Assembly (NCBI GenBank): GCA_043732305.1
Contig: JAYTHU010000094.1
Location: forward strand, 562 to 64,561
Direction: 5' to 3'
Length of the DNA: 64,000 nt
Source: Oligoflexia bacterium
GTDB taxonomy: Bacteria; Bdellovibrionota; Bdellovibrionia; JABDDW01
How positions within the stretch are numbered: position 1 is the first letter of the stretch; every line of letters begins with the position of its first letter. The notes below the pieces were generated by a model. The model made no database searches. It worked only from the letters and a program-made list of their open reading frames with translations, and was not told where the DNA came from. Position numbers and translations under genes: made by a program. Of this stretch, positions 5,707 to 64,000 are shown in pieces.

Positions 5707-7137
5707 TTACTCTTTTATGGCCGAAAAATCCCTCGGATTGATGGCATATTTTTCTATCTTTCTTAAGAGAGTTTTCTTAGGAATATTGGCATGGAGCGCG
5801 GTCTGATTGATTCGACCTTTGAATATTTTCAAGGCCTTGATTATAAACTCTTTTTCGAAGAGTTCCTTTTGTTTATTGAAATCTAAAAGCTCCTGGCCGC
5901 CATTGGGCGATGTTGCTGAGATGGAGTCTTCGAGCACGTCGCCCGTGCCTGCGACCTCATCCAAGCCTGAGATATTCTCAGGGAGACTTCTTAAAGTGAT
6001 CTTGTTCGATCCTTCGATAATAAAAGAATGCTCTATCACATTTTCGAGTTCGCGAATGTTTCCAGGCCAGTCATAGTTCTTCAAAGCTAGGAGTGCTTCC
6101 CCAGTGACCCCAGTAATTTCGCGCTCATGGCTTTTGTTGAACTTAGAAACAAAAAGTTCAATGAGATGCTCCATGTCGCTTTTTCTTTCACGAAGTGGTG
6201 GTAGCATCACTGGGATGACATTCAATCTGTAAAAAAGATCTTCACGGAATTGACCGGCTTTGATCATTTCTTCCAGATTACGATTTGTCGCAGCAATAAT
6301 TCTAACATCACTTTCAACTTCTCGATTTGCACCGACCGGAGTAAATTTTTTCTCTTGAAGCACACGCAGAAGTTTGACTTGCATGGCCATCGAGAGATCG
6401 CCAACTTCATCTAAGAATAAAGTTCCACCTTCAGCAAATTGAAATTTTCCAATCTTTCTTTGATCGGCTCCCGTGAAAGAACCTTTTTCGTGGCCGAAGA
6501 GTTCACTTTCAAAAAGTGTTTCGGGTATGGCTGAACAATTGATCGCGACAATCTTTTCACTTTTTCTTTGGCTATTGTAATGAATTGCGCGTGAGACAAG
6601 TTCTTTTCCCGTTCCAGACTCTCCACGAATCAATACGGGCGTGCTGACTTTGGAAAGTTTATTGATAATATTAAAAACTTTTTGCATCTCTCGGCTGCCA
6701 CTCATAAATTTCTGGCCACCTTCGAGTGTCAATGTTGGTGCACTGGCCGCCACTCTCTCGACTAAATCATGAGCCTCAAAAGCACGCTCGGTCATTTCTA
6801 AAATCTCACTGTGTTTGATCGGCTTAGAAACGTAATTGTACGCGCCTTCACGAACCGCTTTGACCGCGTCTTCTAGGCGACTATGTGCAGTTAAAATAAT
6901 CACAATAATTCGAGGGTCATGTTCTTTGATAAATTTCAGAGCTTCAAGGCCATTCAGCTGAGGCATGTCGACATCTAGGATGACGAGTGAATAATCCGCT
7001 CCCGCTTTTTTAACTTTAGCGACGGCCTCTAAACCATCTGCTGCTTCCTCTATTTCATATTTTCCAGAAGCTGCAAGTGCAGACTTTACGGATGCGCGTA
7101 GAGCTGAATCATCATCGACAACTAAAACTTTAGTCAT
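5707..7137 (-). CDS. Sigma-54-dependent response regulator (NtrC family: REC + AAA+ + HTH).
   Basis: The N-terminal receiver reads VLVVDDD...ILDVDMP. A Walker A motif (GESGTGKE) and a GAFTGA-type loop (GSFTGA) are present. The protein ends in a helix-turn-helix. Confidence 0.9.
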   Translation of the reverse strand: MTKVLVVDDDSALRASVKSALAASGKYEIEEAADGLEAVAKVKKAGADYSLVILDVDMPQLNGLEALKFIKEHDPRIIVIILTAHSRLEDAVKAVREGAYNYVSKPIKHSEILEMTERAFEAHDLVERVAASAPTLTLEGGQKFMSGSREMQKVFNIINKLSKVSTPVLIRGESGTGKELVSRAIHYNSQRKSEKIVAINCSAIPETLFESELFGHEKGSFTGADQRKIGKFQFAEGGTLFLDEVGDLSMAMQVKLLRVLQEKKFTPVGANREVESDVRIIAATNRNLEEMIKAGQFREDLFYRLNVIPVMLPPLRERKSDMEHLIELFVSKFNKSHEREITGVTGEALLALKNYDWPGNIRELENVIEHSFIIEGSNKITLRSLPENISGLDEVAGTGDVLEDSISATSPNGGQELLDFNKQKELFEKEFIIKALKIFKGRINQTALHANIPKKTLLRKIEKYAINPRDFSAIKE

Positions 7138-7165
7138 ACAAACTCCTTGTGATCAAAGACGCTTA

Positions 7166-8986: not shown

Positions 8987-9212
8987 GGATTCCTCGCACC
9001 CGTTCTGGTGCCGCGATCCTTTTATTAGCAATCTCAAGGCCGGCCTAAAGTCTGGTTTGAGAACGTTGGGATCGATCTGACGCAAGTAGCGTGGCTTTTT
9101 TCGCCGCAAGTGGTGTCAAAATGACACTTTCTGTCGTGATTTTTTTTCCGGGATAACGCGGAAGTGCTTACGCCGCGTTACTACTTCCGGGCCATCCAAG
9201 TTTTATTAAGCT

Positions 9213-11552
9213 TTAAGGTTTCCAACAATTTGATGCTGGCTCCTGCCCTTTTCGAAACACCAATGACAAACTTTGTTGAGGCAAGAGGTAGGGTGGCATT
9301 TCCATCACGCAACTTTTATCGAAATTCAATTTTACCGCGCCGTCTGGAACGCTAAATGCGATCGGAGGTAAATGAGCTGCATACGCCTTCATGTAATCAA
9401 TCCATATTGGCAATGCGGCCATGGCGCCAGTCATTCCAGTTGGTTGAGGCTGGTCGAAACCAACCCAAACGATGGCCACATGCAAAGGTGTGAAACCACC
9501 AAACCAGCTGTCTTTGGTGTCTGATGTTGTTCCTGTTTTTCCAGCAGCGGGATGAATGAAGCCGGCGTCGCGTGCAGACTTTCCTGTTCCGCGATCAATC
9601 GCCCCTTCCATAAGACTGACGGTCTCGCGAGCCGCTACATCATCAACGGCTTGCAATGGTGATGGTTTAAATTCCCAAACAATTTTGCCTTGCTCGTTTT
9701 GAATTCGATACATAAAGGTCAAGGGATTGAGTTCACCATGGCGAGCAAGCGTGGAGTAAACTTGCAAAACTTCAAGTGGTGAGAGGGTGGCGGCACCCAG
9801 CGCTAAACTTGGCACCGAGAGCATTGAACTTTCGATTCCCATTTGTGATCCCGCTTCAGCAATTTTTTTAATTCCCACTTGCATCGCCACTTTGCTGGTA
9901 GAAGCGTTCAAACTTTTTTCAATCGCCAAATACAAAGGAATATTTCCAAAATATTTTAAATCGTAATTTTGTGGGGACCAAGATTGATTTTCATATTCCA
10001 CTGTGAAGGGCTCGTCCACTAACGGTGTCAAGGGAGTGAATGGTTTTCCATCGGCATTGCTATTTGAAAAAGCTGTCACAAAAACCACGGGTTTAAAAAT
10101 ACTTCCAACTTGGCGTTTGCTGTTCACGGCGCGGTTCAGTTGAGTTTCACCAAAACTTCTGCCACCCACCACTGCTTCCACAAATCCATTGGTGGGGTCT
10201 GCAGAAATCAAAACGCCTTGGAGTTTTTGTTTGTACTTCAATTCTTTTTTCTGAATGGCCGCAAAACTTTTTTCAATCGATAAAAGTCCACTGGTCACTG
10301 CTTGAGTGGCCGCTTGTTGCGCGCGCAAATTCAACGTAGTAAAAATTCGTAGACCATCCATGTTGTCAAATTTAAGGTTAGAAAGTTGATATTTAACCGA
10401 TTCAATAAAGAACGGGGCCTGGTCGCGAAGCAATCGTTGTGGCTGAGTGGGCAGAGCTTCTTTCTCCGCAGTCGAGTACTCCTCTTGATTGATAAGATTC
10501 AGTTCTAGCATGCGATGGAGAACTTGTTCGCGACGCTTGGTGGCTTTTTCCATGTGAGTGAATGGAGAATAAATCTGGGGACCACGAATACTCCCCGCGA
10601 GCATCGCTGATTCCGCCAATGTGAGTTCACTGGCTTGCTTGTTGAAAAAGAATTTTGCCGCGACGGCCACTCCATGGATTTCAAACGGTCCTGCTTGGCC
10701 CAAGTACACTTCATTCACATAAGTTTCTAGAATGTCGTCTTTAGAGAAACGTGATTCCAAAAGTAGCGCCATAATAATTTCAGTGATTTTTCTTTTGAAA
10801 GTTCTCTTCTGCGTGAGAAAATAATTTTTTACCAATTGCTGAGTGATGGTGCTTCCGCCTTCGCGCACTCCTCCATGCCAGAGATTTCTCAAAAAAGCGC
10901 GTCCCATTCCAGTCCAACTCACACCGGAGTGGGTGAGAAATTGACTGTCTTCAATGGCCATGACTGCATCAAGAAATGCCGTTGGAACATCAGAGAGTGT
11001 CACGATCTGACGCAAGACGGGTTGGCCGCCGTAGAATTGCGCAAAGAGTTCGGGTTCAAGTTCAATGACGGTTGCCGCTATTAACGGCGCCCCTTCATAG
11101 ACTTGCACCACGGCATCATCATTGTTCACTGACACCAATTGTTCAATTGGGTTTCCGCTGTTAGATGCGGAATTGATTTGGTCTTTGCGCGGATGAGACA
11201 GCCAATACCAGCAAGAACTTACCTCAGAAGGAAGATCGGAAATTTTAGCTTTGCACTTTTCAGCATTCAGTTTGGAATATTCTCCGGGTGCCAATTTCTT
11301 TTCTATAAGTACCGGTTTGTATTCAAGCCTAAATAAAGTTTGTTCAATGATTTTTGAGACTTGCGTTTGACCTTTGAGAATTCTTTCAGGGGCAGAGTAA
11401 AATTCTGTTGGCGCGACCCATCTTTTTCCGTTGAGTCGATCTTGAATAGTAGTATCCAAAGATTTAACCCAAAAAACTGCCAACACCAAACCAATGAGAC
11501 CGAAAGAAACGAGGCCAACCAACACTGAGATAAATCCATTTTTGTTTTTCAT
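9213..11552 (-). CDS. Class A penicillin-binding protein (bifunctional transglycosylase/transpeptidase).
   Basis: It has an N-terminal TM anchor. GT51 motifs are EDSQFLTHSGV and GGSTITQQLVKN. Transpeptidase motifs are SIFKP, SxN and KTGTT. Confidence 0.9.
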   Translation of the reverse strand: MKNKNGFISVLVGLVSFGLIGLVLAVFWVKSLDTTIQDRLNGKRWVAPTEFYSAPERILKGQTQVSKIIEQTLFRLEYKPVLIEKKLAPGEYSKLNAEKCKAKISDLPSEVSSCWYWLSHPRKDQINSASNSGNPIEQLVSVNNDDAVVQVYEGAPLIAATVIELEPELFAQFYGGQPVLRQIVTLSDVPTAFLDAVMAIEDSQFLTHSGVSWTGMGRAFLRNLWHGGVREGGSTITQQLVKNYFLTQKRTFKRKITEIIMALLLESRFSKDDILETYVNEVYLGQAGPFEIHGVAVAAKFFFNKQASELTLAESAMLAGSIRGPQIYSPFTHMEKATKRREQVLHRMLELNLINQEEYSTAEKEALPTQPQRLLRDQAPFFIESVKYQLSNLKFDNMDGLRIFTTLNLRAQQAATQAVTSGLLSIEKSFAAIQKKELKYKQKLQGVLISADPTNGFVEAVVGGRSFGETQLNRAVNSKRQVGSIFKPVVFVTAFSNSNADGKPFTPLTPLVDEPFTVEYENQSWSPQNYDLKYFGNIPLYLAIEKSLNASTSKVAMQVGIKKIAEAGSQMGIESSMLSVPSLALGAATLSPLEVLQVYSTLARHGELNPLTFMYRIQNEQGKIVWEFKPSPLQAVDDVAARETVSLMEGAIDRGTGKSARDAGFIHPAAGKTGTTSDTKDSWFGGFTPLHVAIVWVGFDQPQPTGMTGAMAALPIWIDYMKAYAAHLPPIAFSVPDGAVKLNFDKSCVMEMPPYLLPQQSLSLVFRKGQEPASNCWKP

Positions 11553-11601
11553 ATATCATGAGCCTAATTGTACATTGACAGAAAATCAAAATTAGATTCA
11601 G

Positions 11602-11889
11602 ATGGGGGCCATGAAAATCAATTCAAGCCAAATTGAAAGATTGGTGAGGGTAGTCATTGAGCGACTCAAAGACAAAGGCCTCATTCAATTCAAAATCCCC
11701 GAAAAACAAGTTTTTGATCGCGCCATACAGTTGGTTATGGACGATTTTAAAAAGGAAGACGACCTTCACGTCGAAGTGAACAAAATTCTCGACGATCTAG
11801 AAAAACAAAATCCTGGTGGTTTTGATCGTCGAAAGATGTTTTCAATGGTGAAGATCAAGCTCGCTAAGCAAAAGGGGATTGTCCTATGA
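11602..11889 (+). CDS. DUF507 family protein.
   Basis: 95-aa ORF resembling the small DUF507 family found in delta-type proteobacteria. It pairs with a second copy immediately downstream. Confidence 0.6.
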   Translation: MGAMKINSSQIERLVRVVIERLKDKGLIQFKIPEKQVFDRAIQLVMDDFKKEDDLHVEVNKILDDLEKQNPGGFDRRKMFSMVKIKLAKQKGIVL

Positions 11890-12158
11890 TTTTTTCCGAA
11901 GACAAGCAAACCCATTTGGCCCACGTCATTGTTGATGGGATTTGGAACGCCGATATAGTGGAGTATAATGATGAGGATCAGGCGATTCGCGAAGCTAAAA
12001 AAGCTGTCGTTGAGTATGTGAAGCAGGAAGTTTCCATAGATGAGGCTGTTTCTAAGAAAATAGCGACTTTGAAAAAAGGCGTTTTTGAAGGCTCTCGAGA
12101 ATACGATCTTCTCTATAAAAAGTACTATGAAGAAGAACAGAACAAGCATTCAAAATAA
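11886..12158 (+). CDS. DUF507 family protein (second tandem copy).
   Basis: 90 aa. Its start overlaps the upstream stop (ATGA). Size and charge pattern are similar to the first copy. Confidence 0.55.
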   Translation: MIFSEDKQTHLAHVIVDGIWNADIVEYNDEDQAIREAKKAVVEYVKQEVSIDEAVSKKIATLKKGVFEGSREYDLLYKKYYEEEQNKHSK

Positions 12159-12245
12159 AAATACTTGTATGGTAACGTATTGTACCGTATCGTTGGTTCA
12201 AGCGTTCACATCAAAGAGAATACATCTAACAAATAAGACATCAAT

Positions 12246-13748
12246 ATGCCCAAGGAGAATCTCTACGTGAACAAACTTGTGAACAAAACTATCGCGCTTA
12301 ATTTCACCTTACTTATATTTTTCATTTTAACTTTGGCCACAAACGCCGCGAGCGCCGCTGATCTTCAGTGGTCGGGTAGCTATCGCGCTGAAGGAAACTA
12401 TTTAAAGAATTTCACTTTCGACAATGGTGCCGGCAAAGAAGCCAGCTATATGACCAACCATTTGATTCTGTCTCCCAAAATTGTGGCCATGGACGGGCTG
12501 AATATCTATTCTCGCTTTGACCTCTTAAACAATGCCATTCAAAATAACTATTCTGGTCAGCCTTTAGGAACGTACACTGGGAACTTCACCAGCACCAGTG
12601 GACAATCATATCCACCTGCAGTCACAACTAATAGCCAAGGCAGCAATCAGACTTTCAATGTCACCGAGTTGTATATGAATTGGGTGAATGAATTCGGAGC
12701 CTTGGTTTTTGGTCGGGTGCCATTCGGATTCGGGCTCGGCATGCGATACAGCAAGGGCGAGGGCATGTTTGATCACTACGTGACCACTAAAGATATGGTG
12801 GGTTATCGTCTTGCCATCGGTAATTTTACTCTTATGCCAGCATACGGAAAAGTTAAAGAAGGCAATCTTCTTAATGAAGATGACATCAATGATTACATTG
12901 TGATGGCCGAATATAAAAATCCTGAATCTGATGTTGAATTTGGCGTTCTCTACGATCAGAGAATCGGCCCAGTAGATGCGAGTTCCCCCGTTAACGGCAA
13001 CGATATTCCCGCCACTTATTTTGATCCTACTGCAACCATTCAAGCTGGGTACAACGTCTACAACATGAATTTGTTTTTGAAAAAGAAAACCGAAAATTTC
13101 GATTTTGGCGTCGAAGGCGGATTTCAAAATGGTGATACAGGTGCGAGAACCTCTAGTGGGAAAATGGTTGATGTGGCTGGATTTGGTGTGGCCGCAGAGG
13201 CTACTTATCGTGCGGGCACTTTGACTTATAATTTACACGCAGGTATGGCAACTGGTGATAACCCCGATACCACTCGTTTTGAAGGATACTTTTTCAGCCC
13301 CAACTATAACTTGGCTATGATGATGTTTCATCATCCCATGGGACAGTATGATGCAATGAGATCTGCTCTTGCAGGATCTCGTCCTTGGCAATATTCATCC
13401 GACCCCGCAGTCCAAGCGCTTCAGGGTTTAGATACTGAAACAGTCAGTAATGCGATTTACCTTTCGCCTAAAGTCAGTTGGGCGATGGGCGAACGCTACG
13501 ATGCGACAGCAACTTTCTGCTACGCGATCACACAACAAAATCCACTGTCTGCCGCACTTGGCACCGTGGGTAACTCTCTTGGTTTTGAAATGGATTATGG
13601 ATTTAGATATCACATGGGCGATAAATTCGTGTGGGAGACAACAGTTGGTCTCTGGTTCCCAGGTTCTGCCTGGGCCGGAAGTCCTTCAAGCAACTACGCG
13701 ACCTCACTTGCTTATGGTGCAACTTCGAAAGCCGCCATCAACTTCTGA
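12246..13748 (+). CDS. Outer-membrane beta-barrel protein (porin or transporter-like).
   Basis: It has a signal peptide (LLIFFILTLATNAASAAD), alternating amphipathic G/Y/F/N-rich beta-strand pattern and a C-terminal aromatic residue (..AAINF), which is the typical OMP C-terminal signature. The true start may be GTG near 12267. Confidence 0.7.
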   Translation: MPKENLYVNKLVNKTIALNFTLLIFFILTLATNAASAADLQWSGSYRAEGNYLKNFTFDNGAGKEASYMTNHLILSPKIVAMDGLNIYSRFDLLNNAIQNNYSGQPLGTYTGNFTSTSGQSYPPAVTTNSQGSNQTFNVTELYMNWVNEFGALVFGRVPFGFGLGMRYSKGEGMFDHYVTTKDMVGYRLAIGNFTLMPAYGKVKEGNLLNEDDINDYIVMAEYKNPESDVEFGVLYDQRIGPVDASSPVNGNDIPATYFDPTATIQAGYNVYNMNLFLKKKTENFDFGVEGGFQNGDTGARTSSGKMVDVAGFGVAAEATYRAGTLTYNLHAGMATGDNPDTTRFEGYFFSPNYNLAMMMFHHPMGQYDAMRSALAGSRPWQYSSDPAVQALQGLDTETVSNAIYLSPKVSWAMGERYDATATFCYAITQQNPLSAALGTVGNSLGFEMDYGFRYHMGDKFVWETTVGLWFPGSAWAGSPSSNYATSLAYGATSKAAINF

Positions 13749-15065: not shown

Positions 15066-15542
15066 ATGAAGAACACACAACCTTTCCGCGGTCGCTTTGA
15101 ACTTAAAGTCGATCCAAAATTTAGATTGTCTCTACCTTCCGCTTTTCGCGAAATATTAGATTCCGTTTCTCGCGCAGGCTCCACGCCGAGTACGGTAATC
15201 ACCAATAGTCAATATCAGGGCAAAAAGTGTCTTGATGTTTATCCCTCCGCTGAATGGACTAAGTTGGAAAATCGAATCGCCAAATTGCCACAACTAAAAT
15301 TGGAAGTTCAAAACTTTCAAAGATTTTATCTTTCAGGCGGTCACAATGTGGATCTTGATTCTCAGGGCCGCATACTGATCCCGTCCTCTTTAAGAGCATA
15401 CGCTCAAATTCAAACAGAAGTTGTGATTGTCGGATTTGCAGGCAAGTTCGAAATCTGGGCTGCAGAAATCTGGAATGGTCTATTTGAAACTCTCGCCGAA
15501 GACTTCACGCAAACACTTGCTGCTGTGAGTTTACTGGAATGA
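15066..15542 (+). CDS. mraZ: Transcriptional regulator MraZ.
   Basis: 158 aa with a duplicated MraZ fold. The N-terminus is FRGRFELKVDPKFRLSLPSAFRE and the second half is ...DSQGRILIPSSLR. It is the first gene of the dcw cluster. Confidence 0.9.
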   Translation: MKNTQPFRGRFELKVDPKFRLSLPSAFREILDSVSRAGSTPSTVITNSQYQGKKCLDVYPSAEWTKLENRIAKLPQLKLEVQNFQRFYLSGGHNVDLDSQGRILIPSSLRAYAQIQTEVVIVGFAGKFEIWAAEIWNGLFETLAEDFTQTLAAVSLLE

Positions 15543-54018: not shown

Positions 54019-55838
54019 AGCGCACACATTATTGTGGAGAACTTACCGCAATCCACGCCGGACAAACTGTCACTCTAAAAGGATGGGTTAATACCCGCCG
54101 CGATCATGGTGGTTTAGTGTTTGTCGATCTTAGAGATCGCGAAGGAATCACTCAGGTCATGCTGGATCCCAACGCTAAGGGTATGGAAGCGGCTAAAGAT
54201 TTACGCAAAGAATTTGTCATTTCAGCGACTGGGCTTGTTCAAGCTCGCCCAACGGGGATGACAAATAGCAAAATTAAAACAGGCGAAGTTGAATTGATCG
54301 TTTCTGAATTAAAAATTCTCTCTTCCGCTGCGACTTTGCCGTTTGATCCGGAAGATGCCAATGTGAATGAAATGTTGCGCTTGAAATATCGCTACTTGGA
54401 ATTACGCTCACCGGCACTTCAGGAAAAACTTTTTCTAAGATCTAAATTTTGCAACCTCGTTAGAAATTATTTCGAGGAGAACGGCTTCATTGAAGTTGAA
54501 ACTCCCATTTTATGGAAGAGTACCCCTGAAGGAGCACGCGATTATTTGGTTCCCTCGCGAGTGACCCCTGGAAGTTTCTACGCTCTCCCTCAATCTCCTC
54601 AAACTTTAAAGCAACTTTTGATGATTTCTGGGTTTGACCGTTACTATCAAATTGCTCGTTGCTTCCGTGACGAAGATTTGCGAGCTGATCGTCAGCCTGA
54701 ATTCACACAAGTAGATATTGAAATGTCCTTTGTCGATGAAGAAGATGTCATGCATGTCAACGAAGGTGCATTTAAAGCCATTTGGAAAAAGATCAAAAAC
54801 GTCGATATCCCTACTCCGTTTCCACGCATGACGTTTAAAGAAGCCATGGACCGTTTTGGAAATGACAAGCCTGACATTCGCTTTGCTATGGAAATCAAAG
54901 ATCTTTCCGAAGTCTGCCGCCATTCCGGATTTAAAGTTTTCGATGACGTTCTTGCACGCAATGGCGTGGTTCGTGGGATCACCGTTCCTGGTGGCGCAAA
55001 GTTTTCTCGTAAAGATTTCGACGAACTCACTGACATTGCTAAAAAATCTGGAGCCAAGGGCCTTATGTGGGTCAAGTGGGATGACACTGGATTTAATTCT
55101 CCAGCAAGCAAATTTTTAGCTCCAGAAAAACTTCAAGCCATTTGCGAAAAAGTAGCTGGTGGTAAAGACAAAGGCAAAGGCGATTGTGCACTCGTCATTT
55201 CTGATGATTACGATGTTGCCTGTCGCACACTCAGCGTTTTGCGTTTGCATCTTGGTAACAAGTTAAACTTGATAGACACGACCAAAGATTTATTTCTTTG
55301 GGTCACAGATTTCCCTCTTTTGGAATTTGATCCACTTGCCAAAAGATGGAACGCCCTCCATCACCCTTTCACCGCACCTCAAGAGCAGGACATGGAAGCT
55401 TTCTTGTCCGGTGAACATGACAAAATGGTGAACATCAAAGCCAGAGCTTACGATCTTGTTTGTAACGGTTATGAAATTGCTGGTGGCAGTATCCGAATCC
55501 ACAGACAAGACGTTCAAGACGCTATGTTTACGGCGCTGAAAATCACAAAAGAAGAAGCACAATTGAAATTTGGATTTTTCTTGGAAGCTCTCTCATACGG
55601 AACTCCGCCGCATGGTGGAATTGCATGGGGAGTAGATCGATCGGTAATGATTTTATGCAAAACTGATTCTATTCGTGAAGTCATTGCGTTTCCAAAAACT
55701 CAAAAAGCTGCTGATCAAATGTCCGAAACTCCGAGCGAAGTCACTCGGGATCAATTGGCTGAACTTGGTATCAGGATTGCGCTCGACAGTCGTAGTACCG
55801 GTGCCATTGAAACTTTAGCGCCGGATTCCGCCAAATGA
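54015..55838 (+). CDS. aspS: Aspartate--tRNA ligase.
   Basis: N-terminal OB fold (..LKGWVNTRRDHGGLVFVDLRDREG..), class II motifs including QSPQ..KQLLM, FRDEDLRADRQPEFTQ and GGSIRIH. 607 aa with a GAD insertion. Confidence 0.95.
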   Translation: MKRTHYCGELTAIHAGQTVTLKGWVNTRRDHGGLVFVDLRDREGITQVMLDPNAKGMEAAKDLRKEFVISATGLVQARPTGMTNSKIKTGEVELIVSELKILSSAATLPFDPEDANVNEMLRLKYRYLELRSPALQEKLFLRSKFCNLVRNYFEENGFIEVETPILWKSTPEGARDYLVPSRVTPGSFYALPQSPQTLKQLLMISGFDRYYQIARCFRDEDLRADRQPEFTQVDIEMSFVDEEDVMHVNEGAFKAIWKKIKNVDIPTPFPRMTFKEAMDRFGNDKPDIRFAMEIKDLSEVCRHSGFKVFDDVLARNGVVRGITVPGGAKFSRKDFDELTDIAKKSGAKGLMWVKWDDTGFNSPASKFLAPEKLQAICEKVAGGKDKGKGDCALVISDDYDVACRTLSVLRLHLGNKLNLIDTTKDLFLWVTDFPLLEFDPLAKRWNALHHPFTAPQEQDMEAFLSGEHDKMVNIKARAYDLVCNGYEIAGGSIRIHRQDVQDAMFTALKITKEEAQLKFGFFLEALSYGTPPHGGIAWGVDRSVMILCKTDSIREVIAFPKTQKAADQMSETPSEVTRDQLAELGIRIALDSRSTGAIETLAPDSAK

Positions 55839-56812
55839 AATCCGCCGTTATTGTAAACCCCTATTCCGGGGGAGGCAGAACGGCTGCGATGTGGCGCGGA
55901 GTGCGAAATGAAGTTCGCTCACGTTTAGGATCTTTGGAAGAATTTGTAACCAAAGGTCCAATGGACGCGACCAGGTTTGCTAAGCAAATCGCTCATTCGG
56001 ACTATGAGCTTTTGATCGTCGCCGGCGGCGATGGAACAATCAACGAAGCCGTCAATGGACTTTATGATTTGAACGCTGAAGGAAATTCTGGCGGCCACAC
56101 TGTAGTCCAGGCCGTTCACGGTGGATTTCCTAAACCAATTAATCTTGAATTGAAATTTGGAATTCTCAGTGCCGGCCGCGGTTGCGATTTTATAAAGAGT
56201 GTTGCTGTGCCCGAAGATGCACGAAAGGCCATTGATCTATTTATCGAGCCGAAAGTTCAAAAAATAGATATTGGGTTGTGTCTTTTCAAAGATGAGTTTG
56301 GCCGAGACAAACAAAGATTTTTTGTGAATATCGCATGTGCTGGTGTTGCTGGCAAAGTGGCAAAACAAGTGAGTCACACTCCAAGATTTTTGCCTCCCTC
56401 ATTGGCTTACTTCTCTGCGGTTGTCACAAACTTTGTGACTTATCGCCCGCAACGATTACGAGTTTTATTAGACAATAAAGAATTTTTCGAAGGCTTAGCT
56501 ATGAATGTGTTTGTCGCCAATGGTGGATATTCTGGTGCGGGCATGTGTTGGGCGCCAAATGCTCAAGTGGACGATGGTTTTTTCGACGTGATATTGGCAG
56601 AGCCTTCTCCCAAACTCATGACTTTGCTTCAGCAACACAAAATTTATGATGGCAGTTTTCTTGAAATCCCTGGCGTGCATCACAAGCTTGCCAAAAAAGT
56701 TGTCATTGAAACACAAGAAGACGTGTTGCTAGAAATCGATGGCGAACAGCCGGGCCTTGCTCCAGCGCTGTACACCATCCTACCCAAATCTCTCAACTTG
56801 GTTGTCGCTTAG
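55835..56812 (+). CDS. Diacylglycerol/lipid kinase of the YegS/DagK family.
   Basis: DAGK_cat motif LIVAGGDGTINEAVNGL and an N-terminal NPxSG loop (VNPYSGGG). Confidence 0.8.
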   Translation: MKSAVIVNPYSGGGRTAAMWRGVRNEVRSRLGSLEEFVTKGPMDATRFAKQIAHSDYELLIVAGGDGTINEAVNGLYDLNAEGNSGGHTVVQAVHGGFPKPINLELKFGILSAGRGCDFIKSVAVPEDARKAIDLFIEPKVQKIDIGLCLFKDEFGRDKQRFFVNIACAGVAGKVAKQVSHTPRFLPPSLAYFSAVVTNFVTYRPQRLRVLLDNKEFFEGLAMNVFVANGGYSGAGMCWAPNAQVDDGFFDVILAEPSPKLMTLLQQHKIYDGSFLEIPGVHHKLAKKVVIETQEDVLLEIDGEQPGLAPALYTILPKSLNLVVA

Positions 56813-56912
56813 GTACGCCGTACCGTATCCGCAAATCTGGAGCAGATAGACATTCTAGCGGTTTTGGTACGTAACATAAGCTGAGAAGCTAAGGCTTACC
56901 AATGGACTCACC

Positions 56913-56939
56913 TTAAGTCTCAAGTTCCTCCACCGATAG
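56913..56939 (+). promoter_or_regulatory. Candidate sigma-28 (FliA) promoter upstream of the FliG-like gene.
   Basis: TTAAGTCT-N11-ACCGATAG versus the consensus TAAAGTTT-N11-GCCGATAA (6/8 and 6/8 matches). It lies about 105 nt upstream of ATG 57044. Confidence 0.3.
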
Positions 56940-57043
56940 CCGAAAGTATAGTAAGGGGCATTTCCTAGGACTGGGGATGCGCGGATTATCAATTCAGGTC
57001 TCGTGGGTAGGATTAAAGTCGAGACGCTGTTGGAGGTACGTTT

Positions 57044-57511
57044 ATGTCAATGCTTGCGCGCTATAAGAAACCAGGTGGAGTGGAACAGCTGCTCTCACTT
57101 CTCGAATCATGCTTGAGTAAGAAGAAAGAACTTTTGCTTAACACCATCATGCAGGAAGACAAAGCTTTCGGCGAAATGATCAAAGCCAAAATTCTCACCG
57201 TCGATAAAATTCTAAAATGGGATCCGCTTATTGTGTCAGAAGCCTCTGCTAAAGTGGGAGAACGAACTCTCGCTGTGGCACTCAAAGGACTTCCTGAGGA
57301 AGCTTTTGCGGTTCTCACGCACACGATGCGAGATTTAAAGAAACGCGAAATTGCGAATCTTCTTGAGACAGTCAAACCAACTAATGTCGAAATCGAATCT
57401 GCTTTTATCAAGATCATTGAAAAAGCTCGCGAGCTCGAACGCTCCGGGCAAATCAAACTTGATGAAAACGAGATGCCCATTATTGGTGTTGCGATGGCCA
57501 AAGCCGCTTGA
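57044..57511 (+). CDS. Standalone FliG-C-terminal-domain-like protein.
   Basis: 155 aa. The C-terminal half LAVALKGLPEEAFAVLTHTMRDLKKREIANLLETVKPTNVEIESAFIKIIEKARELERSGQI matches the FliG_C pattern (LALALKG..nMSqRaae.l.edle.lgpvr..dVEeAq..Iv...r.L...GeI). A GGAGG ribosome-binding site sits upstream. Confidence 0.65.
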   Translation: MSMLARYKKPGGVEQLLSLLESCLSKKKELLLNTIMQEDKAFGEMIKAKILTVDKILKWDPLIVSEASAKVGERTLAVALKGLPEEAFAVLTHTMRDLKKREIANLLETVKPTNVEIESAFIKIIEKARELERSGQIKLDENEMPIIGVAMAKAA

Positions 57512-57517
57512 GCAGAT

Positions 57518-58651
57518 TTATGTGATCTCTTCTAGCAGGTAGCCGAAATCTTCGGCTCCACGCAAAAGTGCGGTCTGAGAAACTACTCTCAGGCCGTTTT
57601 TTTTTGAGCAAATAATAACAACATCAATGCTGTCCACAATGATTTGTCTGACGGCATGCATGCTCCATTGGGAACACGCTCTGAGCACTAAAGATTCCAA
57701 ACGCTTCAGCGCATGTTGTGCAGAATGTGCGTGCAATGTGCAAATGGCTCCTCGGTGGCCAGTTGAAAGCGCGTCCAATAGTGTCAGCGCCTCTGCGCCT
57801 CTCACTTCGCCCACCACAATTCGATCGGGTCTCATGCGCAAAGTATTTTTCAACAAAAGCGAAAGATCTACCGCTGGAATTAAACCTTCTGGATCAGGTC
57901 GGGTGATCATTGTCACGTGGTGAGGGCCAACACTTCCGAGCTCCGGGGTATCCTCCAATGAAACGATTCTCTCACTCGGTGAACATTCTTTTAGAACCGC
58001 ACGCATGAATGTGGTTTTGCCCGAACCGGTAGCCCCGCAAACTAAAATATTTTTCTTTTCCGAAATCCATCCCCGTAGCTGTCCTAAAAATGTCTGTGAA
58101 AACATTCCCTGCAGCAGAAGATCGTTTAGTCCCCAGTTCTGGTGCCCGTGTTTTCTAATCGTCACAACGGGAGTCTGACTGATGGGTGGTAGACTTAGGT
58201 GCACGCGGGCATTTTCAAAAACTCCGTCTACCAGCGGATGCCGAATGTCGCCTGTTTTATCGATAAGTTTCAGAAGGTTTTTAATAAATCGAGAATAGAT
58301 CACCGGTGAGGAAAAACCATTTTCAGCTCTAAACAGCAATCCTGATTTTTCATAGAAAATTTGATCGTGAGAATTTGCGCAAATTTCGGTAACCTCAAGA
58401 TCGTCTAATAATTTTTGTAGCGGTCCAAATCCATCAATCTCAGACTTTAGTTCTCGAATCCAATCGGCAATATCACCTTCGCTAGACTCGTAAATTTTAT
58501 GGCCTTCGCTATTTTCGTAGGATTGGTATTTAGTTAAAATCAAATTGATCGTGTGATCCGTGGTATTTTCATCTATGCCAGCCAGCACTTCATCGACCAA
58601 TTGCGAGAAGTCAGGCTTTTGACGAAGATCCATTAGAAGTCTTCTTTCCAA
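57518..58651 (-). CDS. cpaF: CpaF/TadA-family secretion ATPase (VirB11 superfamily).
   Basis: Walker A LVCGATGSGKTTFM, an Asp box and a His box (RMRPDRIVVGEVRGAEALTLLDALSTGHRGAICTLHA). 377 aa. Confidence 0.85.
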   Translation of the reverse strand: MERRLLMDLRQKPDFSQLVDEVLAGIDENTTDHTINLILTKYQSYENSEGHKIYESSEGDIADWIRELKSEIDGFGPLQKLLDDLEVTEICANSHDQIFYEKSGLLFRAENGFSSPVIYSRFIKNLLKLIDKTGDIRHPLVDGVFENARVHLSLPPISQTPVVTIRKHGHQNWGLNDLLLQGMFSQTFLGQLRGWISEKKNILVCGATGSGKTTFMRAVLKECSPSERIVSLEDTPELGSVGPHHVTMITRPDPEGLIPAVDLSLLLKNTLRMRPDRIVVGEVRGAEALTLLDALSTGHRGAICTLHAHSAQHALKRLESLVLRACSQWSMHAVRQIIVDSIDVVIICSKKNGLRVVSQTALLRGAEDFGYLLEEIT

Positions 58652-59961
58652 AATTGTTTGATGGGGGCTTCAGAATAATGTTCCGGAGAAATCACCCTTG
58701 GGGTTACAAAAATAACCAGTTCAGAATTATTTTCCTTATAGTCTCGACTTTTAAACAACTCGCCAAGCAGTGGTATTGAACTCAAAATTGGGGTGTCTTG
58801 TACACCACGCCCAATCTCACTTCTAATCAATCCCGAGAGCGCAATCGTTTTCTCCCCACGAATATCAAAGTGTGTTTCGATTCGATTGGTTAAAAATCCC
58901 GGAATACCATCAACCTTATGTGCTTCATCTATCAGACTTACTTCCGTCACAAGTTTAGTGGAAATGCCGCTTTGAGAATCGGCTCGAGGAGTGATATCTA
59001 AAATGACTCCGTAGCGTTTCCAAATCACATTTGCTAATTGCCAGCTCATGAGTTTGATTGGGATTTCTCCACCTGCAACAAAATGAGCCTGTTCGCCACT
59101 TCTGCAAATAATTTTAGGATTGGCGATGACTTTCCCGGCATGCTCTTCCATCTGTGCGTTTAGCTGCAAGTTCATGGGGTTTAAATTTCCCATGAAAGAT
59201 CCTAAATCCGCAGACGGAATAATTGTTCCAGAAAAGCTTTGTGGAAAAGCTAAACCTAAATTTCTAATTTTATTTTTTTTAACTTCGGCAATGGTGATGT
59301 CAATTTCGACCATGGGTTTAAGTTCCACTCGCGATGACTCTTCTGCTGCGGGGAGTCCCCAGTCTTTAGCTATTTCATCTACCATTTTGCGCTCTTTAAC
59401 ATCCTGTGTGGCCGTGACAAGTTTCAGATGGCCATGATGGGCTTCTACGTTAGTAGAAAATAGAGCTCGAGATTCCAAATCTTTTTCTATAGCCACTTGA
59501 ACATCTTTGGCCGCGTTTTCTGAAAGTGTGAGTTCAAGATCGACAATTTGGGGATAAGAATTTTTAGCAGTGGAAAAGGTGATCCAATCGTCTAAAGATT
59601 CGCAGGCTCCTTTGATAAGAATTTTCTTGGGACTCATTGCTATTTCATATCCGGTTACGCCAGTCAGTGCCGATTCTAAAAACTTCTTTGCGGGTTCAAG
59701 TTTGGTTGGATAGACAACTACTTTCATGGGAAGTTTTGTACCGGCTTTTAAAAAAGCTTCTCCTGGCTTTTTGCCAATGAGAATGAGATTGGTCTTCTGC
59801 CTTTTTAAAATCACACTCTGTGCGCTGGTGAGAGACACCTCGACAGATGATTTGTACGGCAGAATTTTCTGTTCCCCAACCATCAGATCAATTTCGGTGG
59901 TGGCGGAAGCTTCGTTTACGATCACTAAAATAAGTAGGAACAAGAATACGATTATTTTCAT
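58633..59961 (-). CDS. cpaC: Tad/Flp-type secretin (CpaC/RcpA-like).
   Basis: Signal peptide, N-terminal BON/secretin-N-like region and a C-terminal secretin core (NPKIICRSGEQAHFVAGGEIPIKL...SSIPLLGELFKSR...ELVIFVTPRVI). It overlaps cpaF by 19 nt. Confidence 0.85.
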   Translation of the reverse strand: MKIIVFLFLLILVIVNEASATTEIDLMVGEQKILPYKSSVEVSLTSAQSVILKRQKTNLILIGKKPGEAFLKAGTKLPMKVVVYPTKLEPAKKFLESALTGVTGYEIAMSPKKILIKGACESLDDWITFSTAKNSYPQIVDLELTLSENAAKDVQVAIEKDLESRALFSTNVEAHHGHLKLVTATQDVKERKMVDEIAKDWGLPAAEESSRVELKPMVEIDITIAEVKKNKIRNLGLAFPQSFSGTIIPSADLGSFMGNLNPMNLQLNAQMEEHAGKVIANPKIICRSGEQAHFVAGGEIPIKLMSWQLANVIWKRYGVILDITPRADSQSGISTKLVTEVSLIDEAHKVDGIPGFLTNRIETHFDIRGEKTIALSGLIRSEIGRGVQDTPILSSIPLLGELFKSRDYKENNSELVIFVTPRVISPEHYSEAPIKQFWKEDF

Positions 59962-60074
59962 GCTAGGAGTTCATTGCAAAAATGAAATTGGACTCATGAT
60001 CAATTGAAGGCGTTAGGTGGCCGGTCGGACGTCAATTCCGGACGGAGCGGACGTAGCCCGGAAGTTCAAACAAG

Positions 60075-61154
60075 TTACACATCAAAACTCACGGTGGTTT
60101 GGTTTTCGGAAGATTCAATTTTGATCTCTGAACCATGCGCCCGCAAGAGACTTTGGCTGACCGCAAGCCCCAACCCCATGCCCTGCGAGTGATTTAAAAT
60201 ATTTTCATCTAGGTTAAAAGGTTTTAAAATATGTTCGATCTGACTTTCGCTCAAAGCTGGACCATGATTTGAAATTTCCACTTTTCCTGGCTCTTGCAAA
60301 CTCACTACGATTTCTGAACCTTCGTCAGAAAATTTAACGGCATTGTGAATAATTTTTTTCACAACTTTTGCCATGAGCATTTCGTCAATTTCTGCTTTTT
60401 CAAAACCCCAATTAAATTTCATCCGGAGATTTTTCTTAGTCAACTGATTAATAAAAATCTTTTCCACATTTTCAATCACTAAGCGCAGAGATGATTCTTT
60501 TTTTCTAACCGTCATCTGGCGCGTCTCTGCTGCGAGCAGATCTAGGACATCAAAAACGATATCGTTCAATCGAGCTAAGCCTTGATTGACTCTTAGAAGA
60601 TATTTAACATGGTCAGGATTTTTTAATTCTTCACTCAACAAAGAAAGATAAGACGTCATAGTGGTCAACGGTGTTTTTAATTCGTGGCCAATCAAAATCA
60701 TGAAATGACTTTTTGCTTCGTCTAATGTTCGAAGTTCTCGATTAGCTGCTTCTAACTTTTTATTTTTCTCTTTCACTTCCGCGCGCAGATCATAACTTTC
60801 GATTGCTTTTTTAATGACGATATCGAGTTCCACTGGATCCCAGGGCTTAGTGATATAGCGATAAATCTGGCCATTGTTGATAGCCGCAATTACAGAATCG
60901 ACATCGGTGTAACCGGTGAGAAGAATGCGAATGGCATCTGGCTGAACTATTTGAGCCTTTTCAAACATTTGCACGCCTGTCATTTCCGGCATGCGCTGGT
61001 CACTTAAAATCAAATGTACTTTTTCTTTTTGCAATATTTTTAGCGCTTCGAAGCCGGAAAAAGCTTTGAAGACGGTATAGTCCCTCCGGAACTGACGCTC
61101 CAGGGAGTCGACAATATCTTTTTCGTCATCAACGACGAGAATCGCATGCTTCAT
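60075..61154 (-). CDS. Hybrid response-regulator receiver / histidine kinase (REC-HisKA-HATPase_c).
   Basis: N-terminal REC domain (ILVVDDEKD...LILSDQRMP...ITKPWD), HisKA motif (IGHELKTPLTTM) and HATPase_c (GMGLGLAVSQSLLRAHG). It has no TM segment, so it is cytoplasmic. Confidence 0.85.
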   Translation of the reverse strand: MKHAILVVDDEKDIVDSLERQFRRDYTVFKAFSGFEALKILQKEKVHLILSDQRMPEMTGVQMFEKAQIVQPDAIRILLTGYTDVDSVIAAINNGQIYRYITKPWDPVELDIVIKKAIESYDLRAEVKEKNKKLEAANRELRTLDEAKSHFMILIGHELKTPLTTMTSYLSLLSEELKNPDHVKYLLRVNQGLARLNDIVFDVLDLLAAETRQMTVRKKESSLRLVIENVEKIFINQLTKKNLRMKFNWGFEKAEIDEMLMAKVVKKIIHNAVKFSDEGSEIVVSLQEPGKVEISNHGPALSESQIEHILKPFNLDENILNHSQGMGLGLAVSQSLLRAHGSEIKIESSENQTTVSFDV

Positions 61155-61349
61155 ATATTTTCTTTTCGGATAAGTTCTCGAGAGGGTGAAGTTAGGGGGC
61201 TGGACCTTGGTTTAGCAAATGTAAAATCTAGCCCGAGGGCTGGGTGTGGGTTTGGCAATAGGTCATGGTAAATAAATTTTAGTGATTGAAGTTCCGTGAC
61301 GAAGATACCTCAGTAAGGGTATACTTTTAGCTGGGGAGTAAGCTAAGAA

Positions 61350-63311
61350 ATGATAAAACTCAATAGTTTCTATACGATGTTAGTTGTAATACTTTTCACC
61401 ACGAATGCTTGGGCACAATTGGTTTCGCCGAGTATTGCTGCAAATCCAAACGAAGGGTTGTGGGGAACAGGTGCTGGTGGCCTCGTACAAACTTGTCAGA
61501 ACGGTGCTAGCCTAGCAAAGACAATTGATATCAATGAAGACGATGATGTTCGTGAAGCGCGTGATGCTGGTCGCGAAGCAAAAAGTCACTTAGCAGAATT
61601 AAAGACTAAGCTCGCCGAAATAAAATCGACAAATAAGAATCAAAAAAGTGACCTTCGCCATGCATTTAGTGTTGGAAGTGAAGCTGATTCATTTTTTCAG
61701 ACCGTGACCGCTTGTCAGGAAGTTTTCGATGAAGGAAACAATGCAGAGAAGAGAATCGCTGCAGACGACAAGACCTATCCTAAGCAGAGTGATAAAACTA
61801 ATGCAATATCTGCAGCTCGAGAAACCGCCATTAATTCTCGATTTACTAATGAAACTGGAGATACAGGCAGCAGTGTTCGTGGAGGAGACAAAATAACTAA
61901 TTGCAGACAGGCCGTGTCGCAAGGTGGGGCTCACCCTAGTAAATTTATTGATGCCAAATTACTCTGTGGCGTTCACGATGGACCAGTTGAAAGTGTTTTG
62001 GGCGGATCAACTGACCAAGTTCACCACTCTAAGACTGATGTTGTAGCCTGTCAAAAATCAGCAAGTGGTTTACTAGAAAATATCGAAGCCGAAAGAGTTG
62101 CACAAGGTGAATTTGATAAAGCAAAAAAAGACCTCAGCAAACAAACATCAGAAATCTCAAAAACTATTGCGAAGCGTAAACGTGAGTTAGCCAAAGATTA
62201 CGCTGATGACAAAAAGCTCGCGAAAGAATTGGGCGAAGATGATTCCGGAATCAATTTCACCGATAGCGCCATGGGCGTTCGTGATTGCAAAGATGGAACC
62301 TGCGGTATTGTTCGTGTTGTTGGCGCTAGCAACAACAACAATGACATGTTCGATAAAATTGGTCCCATCATGTTGGGTGCAACTCTCATCGAAACTTTAG
62401 GCAGTGTTTACAACGCTTCGGCTGGACAAAGAACTTGTAAATCATATGGTTATTGCGCTCCTCAGGGACCCAATTACTGGATGCAGCCTGCACAAACTCT
62501 GAACAATGGTATTTCCAATTACGCGCAGCTGGCTTTGCTGAATCAAAAACTCAACAGTTCGGGTTATGGATATCCAATGTCTGGTATTGGCACTGGAATG
62601 GGCAACGGCGCGTTTAGCTGCGCACAACTTGTCGGGTCATCGATTTACAATCAAGTTGGTCAAAATGGAAATATTCTCGGGCCTTATTCTGCTCAGCAAT
62701 CACCTTACGCACAATTGTTGCAGCAACAGCAAGGCCGTTTCAATCCAATGATGAATGGCCAAGTGGGCGTCATGCCAGTCGGTAACGGACAAATGATGTA
62801 TAATCAAAATGGCCAGCTTGCAGCCAACTGCATTCAATTTCCTTGCAACACCAGTGGTCTTGGCAACACACAGGTTTATAATCCTGGAGTGTTTAACGGA
62901 AACGGAAACCAGTCTGGTGGCAATCAGTTCGGCAACAATCAATTTGGCGCTAACGGCGGACTCAACAATTTCAATTCAGGGATTTACGGGCAAAATGCGG
63001 GTGGAGTAAATATGGGTGCTGCCGTTTATGCGGACTCAATGCGTGAAGCTCAACAAGCTCAGTATCTTATGGGTGCTAGCCAGGCGGGCCTTTCATTTGC
63101 TCAGCAATCTCAGTATTTCGGTGGAAACACCGGCGCCATCAGCAACGGCAATGGTCAAAACCAATTCAATTTGAATTTGAGTTACAATCCTGCCAATTCA
63201 AACGGAGCAAGTAGTCCTTTTGGATCTCAATATGGTTTGCCCACGCTAGGTACCGGTGGAAGCACTTATCTGCCTGGCGTGACCACTGGCGCCTCAGTCT
63301 TCGGTAGATAA
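61350..63311 (+). CDS. Secreted protein with a charged helical N-terminal half and a long Q/N/G-rich prion-like C-terminal half.
   Basis: Signal peptide MIKLNSFYTMLVVILFTTNAWA. It has about 10 Cys in the N-terminal half. The C-terminal ~300 aa is dominated by Q, N, G, S and Y (QQSPYAQLLQQQQGRFNPMMNGQ...NGNGNQSGGNQFGNNQFGANGG...). Confidence 0.65.
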   Translation: MIKLNSFYTMLVVILFTTNAWAQLVSPSIAANPNEGLWGTGAGGLVQTCQNGASLAKTIDINEDDDVREARDAGREAKSHLAELKTKLAEIKSTNKNQKSDLRHAFSVGSEADSFFQTVTACQEVFDEGNNAEKRIAADDKTYPKQSDKTNAISAARETAINSRFTNETGDTGSSVRGGDKITNCRQAVSQGGAHPSKFIDAKLLCGVHDGPVESVLGGSTDQVHHSKTDVVACQKSASGLLENIEAERVAQGEFDKAKKDLSKQTSEISKTIAKRKRELAKDYADDKKLAKELGEDDSGINFTDSAMGVRDCKDGTCGIVRVVGASNNNNDMFDKIGPIMLGATLIETLGSVYNASAGQRTCKSYGYCAPQGPNYWMQPAQTLNNGISNYAQLALLNQKLNSSGYGYPMSGIGTGMGNGAFSCAQLVGSSIYNQVGQNGNILGPYSAQQSPYAQLLQQQQGRFNPMMNGQVGVMPVGNGQMMYNQNGQLAANCIQFPCNTSGLGNTQVYNPGVFNGNGNQSGGNQFGNNQFGANGGLNNFNSGIYGQNAGGVNMGAAVYADSMREAQQAQYLMGASQAGLSFAQQSQYFGGNTGAISNGNGQNQFNLNLSYNPANSNGASSPFGSQYGLPTLGTGGSTYLPGVTTGASVFGR

Positions 63312-63330: not shown

Positions 63331-64000
63331 TTAGTACGCTGCCTCAGTCACTCTGTGGCTGGGGTTGGCGTTGTTTGACTGATTTTCGCCCTGTTTAATC
63401 GCAACAATCGTCCCAATTGTAACAACACTTACTCCCACCCAAAACCACGGGGATCTAGTCAGTTTTGAAAACCAACTATTGCCACGCTTTACTGGGGTAA
63501 ATTCAGATTTACCTACCAAGTCAATTTTTTGCACTAATTTTTCTTCCTTGATAGGAAGTCGTGAAATTTTTGTGACATCTTTCATCAATGCTTTTGGAAT
63601 GTCTCCGGGAAGAGTTGGGGTTTCGGCGACGATCATGATTTGTCGGCCCTTGAGATCGAACCAAGAATCCCCGTCGTAAACTCTGAGACATCTGCCATCA
63701 TCAAACACGGTGACTAGTCTAGTGTGCGCAGGCAGGAAGAGTTTTTTGTCCACGCTGGGTTGTTCACAGCTTCCAAGCACAAGCGGTTCTGGTTTGAATA
63801 CGAATGAGATGAAGTTATCGCGACTGCTGATTCCCGTGATATTTTGGGCTTCGAAGTTTTCCACCTGCCATGAACTTCCTGGAATCAAAACAGCCCATTG
63901 ATGTTTCCCGGTATAAACCTTAGTTTTTCCAGAGACTTCAATAAATTTCTGTCCATCTAAGTAAATGAGACTCGAGCGTGGCACTTGAATTTTCAAAGTC
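63331..64000 (-). CDS. Hypothetical C-terminally membrane-anchored protein, possibly partial.
   Basis: The first in-window Met is at 63996. If that Met is not the true start, the reading frame would continue past the window end. It has a C-terminal TM helix (WFWVGVSVVTIGTIVAI) and a short N/Q-rich tail. No recognised domain. Confidence 0.4.
   Translation of the reverse strand, partial: TLKIQVPRSSLIYLDGQKFIEVSGKTKVYTGKHQWAVLIPGSSWQVENFEAQNITGISSRDNFISFVFKPEPLVLGSCEQPSVDKKLFLPAHTRLVTVFDDGRCLRVYDGDSWFDLKGRQIMIVAETPTLPGDIPKALMKDVTKISRLPIKEEKLVQKIDLVGKSEFTPVKRGNSWFSKLTRSPWFWVGVSVVTIGTIVAIKQGENQSNNANPSHRVTEAAY

Follow-up and report, generated by a model that had tools for sequence, protein, structure and literature searches.

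Genes of the secretin–ATPase locus

The stretch of DNA analysed here (the window) comprises 64,000 nucleotides of contig JAYTHU010000094.1 from an uncultured Oligoflexia bacterium, and close to its end three minus-strand genes encode two components of the Tad (type IVc/Flp) pilus kind, a TadA2/CpaF-type ATPase (57518..58633) and an outer-membrane secretin of the RcpA2/CpaC type (58633..59961), and a cytoplasmic REC-HisKA-HATPase_c protein (REC-HK, for receiver domain and histidine kinase; 60075..61154). They are bracketed by two plus-strand genes, one for a FliG_C-like protein of 155 amino acids (aa; 57044..57511) and one for a secreted G/N/Q/Y-rich protein of 653 aa (61350..63311). All five genes at 57044-63311 were confirmed by the listing of open reading frames (ORFs) together with profile searches, and the domains assigned to the three minus-strand proteins in an earlier note, which was made from the sequence alone, match those found in Pfam. 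Positions are window coordinates unless a locus identifier such as L001 is given.

The ATPase matches the Pfam T2SSE domain with an E value of 7.7e-35. Its closest solved relative in a search of the PDB is CpaF (E 2e-43), ahead of VirB11, and its homologues are named CpaF or TadA. The Walker A motif, Asp box, Walker B motif and His box are invariant across nine orthologues. Proteins of this group are short (about 355-383 aa), without most of the approximately 136 N-terminal residues of Caulobacter CpaF. The secretin, with 442 aa and a signal peptide, matches the Pfam Secretin domain (1e-32); its homologues are annotated as CpaC and some of them carry PF13629, and its best PDB sequence matches are 8jvb (named “Type II and III secretion system protein” in its deposition) and the RcpA structure 8odn. 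At the junction of the two genes, which reads ...GACTTCTAATGGAT..., the overlap of 19 nt reported in the earlier note holds if the TTG codon at 58651 is used as the start of the ATPase gene, giving a protein of 377 aa. A start at the ATG at 58633 is preferred, on account of both the junction sequence TTCTAATGGAT and the public gene call; it gives 371 aa and a TAATG overlap of a single nucleotide. The secretin and ATPase genes are tightly coupled with either start codon.

The REC-HK protein matches Response_reg, HisKA and HATPase_c of Pfam and has no hydrophobic segment. The D, T and K residues of the receiver, the His of the H box, the N box and the G2 box are conserved in seven orthologues. 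The G1 box, at about residues 300-306, reads N-x-G and not DxGxG in all seven. Judging from this motif, the kinase activity of the protein may be weak or atypical, or the protein may serve mainly as a phosphatase or in phosphotransfer. The 653-aa protein encoded divergently from REC-HK has no Pfam match. It has been described as secreted and Q/N-rich, and this agrees with its signal-peptide-like N-terminus and with the composition of its C-terminal half (G 17%, N 13% and Q 11%). The N-terminal half contains Cys residues, a positional orthologue is present in all loci, and an alignment of seven of these orthologues contains invariant Cys and Gly residues.

The gene that follows, the ORF at 63331, closes an operon on the minus strand that runs beyond position 64000. 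The same contig in public assemblies, found by exact-protein look-up and here called L001, adds 9.3 kb past the window end (an L001 coordinate plus 51349 gives the window coordinate). With this extension the operon can be read as Flp, p117, p241, p92, p175 and p400. The last of these (3' part 63331..64000; 400 aa at full length) has a signal peptide and a C-terminal transmembrane anchor, and p175 (window-equivalent 64530-65057, minus strand; 175 aa) is a bitopic protein. The 97-aa Flp pilin (window-equivalent 66377-66670, minus strand; L001 15028-15321) matches Pfam Flp_Fap with 38.6 bits against a cut-off of 32.2, as well as N_methyl, and its sequence ...NQSG↓QSLVEYLVIVAIIAIG carries the G/XXXXEY motif. 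Three further minus-strand genes encode prepilin-like proteins: p92 (window-equivalent 65054-65332) and p117 (66055-66408), each with a G↓Q...E N-terminus read by eye, and p241 (65333-66058), with a G↓Q N-terminus and sub-threshold matches to Tad and TadE (E about 0.05-0.07). Scans of p175, p400, p92, p117 and p75 against Pfam and NCBIfam gave nothing above noise, and alignments of p175 (A2) and p400 (A3) have no profile match against the PDB. An RcpC/CpaB-like identity of p175 is a guess from the motif IPKGFLLVPIEL…GVIDL, and it stays one because the PDB, Pfam and NCBIfam profile searches were all empty.

The secretin–ATPase pair had been described as an orphan without a pilin. It is not pilin-less, since Flp and three prepilin-like proteins are encoded in the same locus just past the window end, with the Flp gene 5.2 kb from the end of the region first noted (61154) and outside the window.

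Between FolD and Flp there is also a gene for the 75-aa protein p75 (L001 15466-15693, minus strand; window-equivalent 66815-67042). Few proteins of the block are conserved as well as this one, with 55-87% identity in all loci that reach its position. It may regulate the pilin operon, or it may be a housekeeping protein that has nothing to do with it.

What the locus lacks is an inner-membrane base. No T2SSF (TadB/TadC), Peptidase_A24 or TadZ protein was found in any of more than 12 loci, L001 among them, including flanks of 10 kb, nor elsewhere in the 64-kb window, and the locus itself encodes no polytopic membrane protein and no recognisable RcpC/CpaB or TadD. The list of absent genes drawn up in the earlier note therefore stands for the platform, TadZ and the prepilin peptidase; for the flp pilin it is true only inside the window. 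The statement that the layout is not that of a standard Tad system, type II secretion system (T2SS) or type IV pilus is likewise borne out, with no platform, TadZ or peptidase in the locus.

Conservation and shared cis elements across Bdellovibrionota

FolD–Flp–minor pilins–REC-HK–secretin–ATPase–AspRS…FliA is a recurrent block, present in more than 12 genomes of Bdellovibrionota. The whole block is present in seven close relatives, as seen in tblastn searches of all locus proteins against the fetched loci, and also in L025, L027, L031, L032 and L033, at ATPase identities of about 36-42%; L031 and L032 are labelled Bdellovibrio sp. In its first half the order of genes is Rieske/FolD, p75, Flp, two to three prepilin-like genes, p175-like, p400-like and in some cases Amidohydro_3, and in its second half a secreted protein of approximately 610-715 aa, REC-HK, secretin, ATPase, AspRS (aspartyl-tRNA synthetase) and, after further genes, an RpoD-like gene, FliA, FlhG, FlhF and FlhA. 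The REC-HK gene is kept directly upstream of the secretin gene in the orthologous loci. The chromosomal site is constant, with FolD on one side and AspRS, the RpoD-like gene and FliA–FlhG–FlhF–FlhA on the other. Of the block, L026 has no more than the secretin and ATPase genes. A platform is missing from every copy of the locus, and of the two options raised in the earlier note it is the second, a split machine with its platform encoded elsewhere, that is best supported. The first option, a minimal regulated extrusion device, is disfavoured by the pilin set in the locus and by the separability of the FliG_C-like gene (see below). A flp gene beyond the window end and an ordinary gene order in relatives were findings that the note itself had named beforehand as speaking against its interpretation; both were made, the same order being found in metagenome-assembled genomes (MAGs) of Bdellovibrio sp.

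In one metagenomic copy of the locus, L027, a Y1 (IS200-like) transposase gene is inserted between REC-HK and the secretin gene (7971-8675).

The two operons of the locus also share a cis element. An 18-nt box, TTTTGCAATGAACTCCTA, lies directly upstream of the secretin start (59964..59981, minus strand) and is found again, nearly unchanged, ahead of the Flp gene (L001 15338-15355, minus strand). In the 74 kb of sequence the box TTTTGCAATGAMCTCCTA occurs only at these two places, and it was recovered independently by a repeat search. In several orthologous loci its TTTGCA core lies near -30 relative to the flp start and near -17 relative to the secretin start, which suggests that the flp and secretin operons are co-regulated. 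Directly downstream of the box, the flp leaders of six loci (L001, L002, L003, L027, L031 and L032) are predicted to fold into a hairpin that sequesters the Shine-Dalgarno sequence, with minimum free energies of -7 to -13 kcal/mol; shuffled sequences reach about -3 to -6. In L001 the hairpin is at 15322-15350 (minus strand), and in L008 it is weaker. The Shine-Dalgarno and anti-Shine-Dalgarno strands change in a compensatory way from locus to locus (for example GACCTCC/GGAGGTC, AGCCTCC/GGAGGCT and AATCTCCT/AGGAGATT). A search of the whole locus against Rfam found no match at E<=0.1.

A reading of the TTTGCA box as a σ54 promoter was rejected because the GG at -24, checked by hand, is missing in every locus; nor does the box resemble a σ28 site. 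The Tad locus yielded no σ54 promoter, and there was no σ28 motif upstream of flp, the secretin gene or REC-HK.

Probable correspondence to tad locus 2 and models of function

In Bdellovibrio bacteriovorus HD100, flp3 is bd3297 and fliA is bd3318; for B. exovorus the gene numbers are a11q_630 (flp3) and a11q_617 (fliA; Avidan et al., PMC5430801). The spacing of thirteen genes between flp3 and fliA in B. exovorus agrees with the gene count in L031, where the secretin and ATPase genes stand at +9 and +10 counted from Flp, positions that fit bd3297 to bd3306/bd3307. These last are the “bd3306 pilQ and bd3307 cpaF” that lie near the RHS-like gene bd3309 (Capeness et al., PMC3818213); that bd3309 sits in the slot between the ATPase gene and aspS is our guess. 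From position and published gene numbers the window locus thus matches the “tad locus 2” described for HD100, of which it is a putative orthologue. The lineage of the window is an uncultured one of the Oligoflexia/Bdellovibrionia, and the names of the nearest database proteins agree with this placement. Both have an adjacent rcpA–tadA pair without tadB, tadC or tadZ, a Flp gene about nine genes off, the neighbourhood folD … aspS … fliA–flhG–flhF–flhA and a histidine-kinase gene nearby. The layout in the Bdellovibrio sp. MAGs is identical to that of tad locus 2. The window lineage differs in an insertion of DAGK and FliG_C-like genes between tadA2 and aspS and in having no Amidohydro_3 gene, which the Bdellovibrio copies do have; protein identities between the Bdellovibrio sp. 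copies and the window lineage are only about 30-45%.

Taken with the conservation of the block, this makes it likely that Bdellovibrionota have a conserved accessory Tad (type IVc/Flp) pilus locus, tad locus 2 of HD100, and that REC-HK, secretin and ATPase make up one arm of it. For a fibre the locus has a set of its own, Flp and three prepilin-like proteins with G↓Q cleavage motifs; it also supplies the outer-membrane channel and an ATPase with intact catalytic motifs, in addition to the bitopic 175-aa, anchored 400-aa and secreted G/N/Q-rich proteins. For the parts that it lacks, HD100 offers a precedent: tadC is unlinked (it is listed as bd0470, PMC3818213), and Flp1 is processed by PilD, there being no TadV (Tesseur et al., bioRxiv 10.64898/2026.07.08.737194). 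The same preprint places histidine-kinase genes near tad genes. With HD100 as precedent we infer that platform and peptidase are borrowed. The ATPase hexamer would dock on a platform encoded elsewhere, the prepilins would be cut by a PilD-type peptidase encoded elsewhere, and a fibre of the Flp3 type would be polymerised through the RcpA2 secretin. REC-HK would take phosphoryl input on its receiver domain and pass the signal to an unlinked partner, and the flp leader hairpin, by sequestering the Shine-Dalgarno sequence, would gate translation of the pilin.

Several points weigh against the assignment to an accessory Tad pilus. In B. bacteriovorus flp3 is silent under all tested conditions and its deletion has no phenotype (PMC5430801), and ΔrcpA2 and ΔtadA2 mutants show normal predation (Tesseur et al., bioRxiv 10.64898/2026.07.08.737194). 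The tad locus 2 module is described there as dispensable for predation, with an expression that, like that of flp3, is unlike that of the core genes. The orthology with Bd3297-Bd3307 of HD100 is built on synteny in the Bdellovibrio sp. MAGs and on published gene numbers, the search for TadB/TadC in the organism of the window covered one contig of 74 kb, and the putative minor pilins and the RcpC-like role of p175 are proposed from sub-threshold matches or from motifs read by eye. The kinase activity of REC-HK is also uncertain because its G1 box is atypical.

The B. bacteriovorus phenotypes, that is, the absence of flp3 expression and of any effect of Δflp3 (PMC5430801) and the normal predation of ΔrcpA2 and ΔtadA2 (bioRxiv 10.64898/2026.07.08.737194), are also what one would expect of a decaying duplicate, a silent relic of a duplicated Tad system that has lost its platform and has no remaining activity. 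We consider such a relic very unlikely, given that more than 12 genomes, diverged as far as 30-40% identity, keep every gene intact and that gene order, cis box and compensated leader hairpin are conserved. The invariant ATPase motifs and the conserved phosphorylation motifs of the kinase point to purifying selection and not to decay, and the bd3307 transcript differs between attack-phase and host-independent cells (PMC3818213). The predicted leader hairpin fits the apparent silence of flp3.

A different role can be proposed from the G/N/Q-rich protein, since the gene that separates the pilin operon from the HK–secretin–ATPase operon is in every case one for a large secreted protein of low complexity. 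In this proposal the system is derived from Tad and works like a T2SS, a short pseudopilus of Flp3 and the minor pilins pushing or presenting the 650-710-aa protein through RcpA2, with no adhesive pilus. The RHS-like gene bd3309 near bd3306/bd3307 could be seen in the same light, its relative Bd0109 being linked to pilus regulation (PMC3818213). Against this, the G/N/Q-rich protein is equipped with a Sec-type signal peptide of its own and its promoter is divergent, and the problem of the platform persists. We know of no precedent for a Tad system as a protein exporter, and regard secretion or display as unlikely. A bolder proposal, which we hold to be rather unlikely, is that Flp3, the minor pilins, RcpA2, the short TadA2, REC-HK and the G/N/Q-rich protein form a distinct phylum-wide machine. 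It would either share a single TadB/TadC platform in time with the predation-essential Tad system, one motor base being switched under regulation between two fibres and channels, or serve to export or display the G/N/Q-rich protein, and would be gated by the TTTGCA box and the flp leader hairpin.

As an accessory Tad locus it can be compared with the canonical Tad/Flp systems (Aggregatibacter tad, Caulobacter cpa and Pseudomonas rcp-tad). It shares with them the CpaF/TadA ATPase, the RcpA/CpaC secretin, Flp with the G/XXXXEY motif and, putatively, TadE-like prepilins, and differs in having no TadB/TadC, TadZ/CpaE, TadV/CpaA, recognisable RcpC/CpaB or TadD, and in its short ATPase. A two-component gene inside a Tad locus has a precedent in PprAB of Pseudomonas aeruginosa. 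The Kil system of Myxococcus xanthus encodes its own platform proteins, unlike the window locus. In other respects Kil is comparable, being a Tad-like machine of a predator with components split over two clusters and accompanied by signalling genes (PMC8460266, PMC12075869). From this likeness a role of the window locus in killing does not follow. The window locus would then be an orthologue of an accessory Tad locus already described. Its conserved set of own pilins and REC-HK, the constant absence of a platform, the shared cis element and the leader hairpin are handles on the silence and dispensability of flp3, rcpA2 and tadA2 in B. bacteriovorus.

The FliG_C-like neighbour and other window genes

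The 155-aa protein encoded at 57044..57511 (plus strand) matches Pfam FliG_C with E 6.8e-12 and 46 bits against a cut-off of 23.3, so that the FliG C-terminal domain recognised in the earlier note is confirmed. A profile of its family matches Thermotoga maritima FliG in the PDB (E 4e-9) over the ARM_C and C-terminal domains, and an AlphaFold2 model of the protein (pLDDT 89) has FliG as each of its top 16 PDB matches in Foldseek. TIGR00207, the fliG equivalog, is matched with 32 bits against a cut-off of 226.7, and only at FliG positions 192-328. The N-terminal and middle domains of FliG are missing, and with them the parts that bind FliF or FliM. What the protein has in common with FliG is the ARM_C and C-terminal domain fold, together with the conserved lysine of ALKG in the torque helix (K266). 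It differs in that, apart from K266, it lacks the torque-helix charges that contact MotA: where T. maritima FliG has R283, D290, E291 and R298, the profile alignment shows L, N, L/F and a variable residue, respectively.

That this protein might belong to the secretin–ATPase machine is suggested by its position. Its gene abuts the ATPase gene, with convergent stop codons 6 nt apart, and the adjacency is found in seven related loci too. The earlier note had drawn from it the picture of a minimal extrusion machine without pilin or platform, wired to a FliG_C-like protein and to REC-HK. The Flp and prepilin-like genes in the same locus contradict such a machine, and the adjacency is uninformative because housekeeping neighbours are syntenic in the same seven loci. 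In L025, L026, L027, L031, L032 and L033 the FliG_C-like gene is absent: unrelated small genes come next after the ATPase gene in L025, L026 and L027, and AspRS follows it directly in L031, L032 and L033. The small convergent genes of L025, L026 and L027 gave no FliG_C-like match with hmmsearch --max. Conversely, homologues of the FliG_C-like protein (30-35% identity; Pseudobdellovibrionaceae and Bdellovibrio MAGs) are encoded away from Tad genes, beside PhoR/PhoB/PhoU/PstB-like or other unrelated genes. Being convergent, the FliG_C-like and ATPase genes are not co-transcribed, and the FliG_C-like family has σ28-type promoters of its own. With these findings the wiring of the FliG-like protein to secretin and ATPase falls away, and the extrusion machine as a whole is highly improbable. 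Most of what seemed odd about the pair comes from the place where the window ends and from a neighbouring gene that carries no information.

The transcription signals of the FliG_C-like gene are consistent with an independent unit. Upstream of it lies a σ28 (FliA)-type promoter-like site, CTTAAG-N14-CCGATAG (56912..56939, plus strand), and a strong intrinsic terminator for its transcript, with a stem of 11 bp followed by T8, is located inside the 3' coding end of the ATPase gene (57570..57607, plus strand). In 12 of 20 loci the motif TAA-N15-19-CCGATW precedes the FliG_C-like gene by no more than 140 nt, where the background would predict 1% (binomial P about 1e-19). A σ28 scan across the window is not significant, with five overlapping matches at three sites against 3.5 expected, and for this reason the argument rests on conservation across loci. 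We conclude that the gene is, on the strength of these sequence signals and of its distribution, an independent gene of a putative σ28 regulon, an unrelated neighbour and not a component of the Tad locus.

Written as TAAA-N15-17-CCGATAA, the σ28-type motif is present in 12-14 of the 20 loci (1-2.5% expected), including L002, L013-L020, L023 and L024.

The FliG_C-like family comprises 313 clusters at 50% identity in a full-library profile search with E<=1e-10. The domain always starts from residue 1, and the proteins are either about 155 aa or about 235 aa long, several of the sampled long forms ending in a stretch that resembles a coiled coil or leucine zipper (as judged from sequence and from weak, sub-threshold bZIP/HALZ matches). 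A look-up of names or taxa for the longer members returned no recorded names. A literature search on FliG-like proteins in Bdellovibrio returned nothing relevant, and no description of the short FliG_C-like family was found in the literature searched. The family is a candidate for a flagellar accessory factor. A second paralogue, with 53% identity, is encoded in L009 (4638-5141), which belongs to the same MAG as L008; it lies beside genes for a 1404-aa protein and for transporters, with no Tad gene near.

The slot between the ATPase gene and aspS varies in content. In the window it holds DAGK and the FliG_C-like gene (55835-57511), in L027 DAGK and an unrelated 104-aa gene (11089-12499), and in L025 genes of 74 and 170 aa (11139-12034); in the Bdellovibrio sp. 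copies, L031 among them, and in L033 it is empty.

The rest of the window encodes the isoleucyl-tRNA synthetase IleRS, lspA, lgt, a CHASE2 kinase and an NtrC-type regulator, the dcw cluster and UvrD, as well as a flagellar run (fliL-M-N-O-P-Q-R-flhB-flhA-flhF-flhG-fliA), the rpoD-like gene, HisRS (histidyl-tRNA synthetase), AspRS and a YegS-like lipid kinase. The CHASE2-HisKA-HATPase sensor kinase and the adjoining REC-σ54-activator (NtrC-type) regulator, at 5707-9109 on the minus strand, are the sole σ54-dependent regulator pair in the window.

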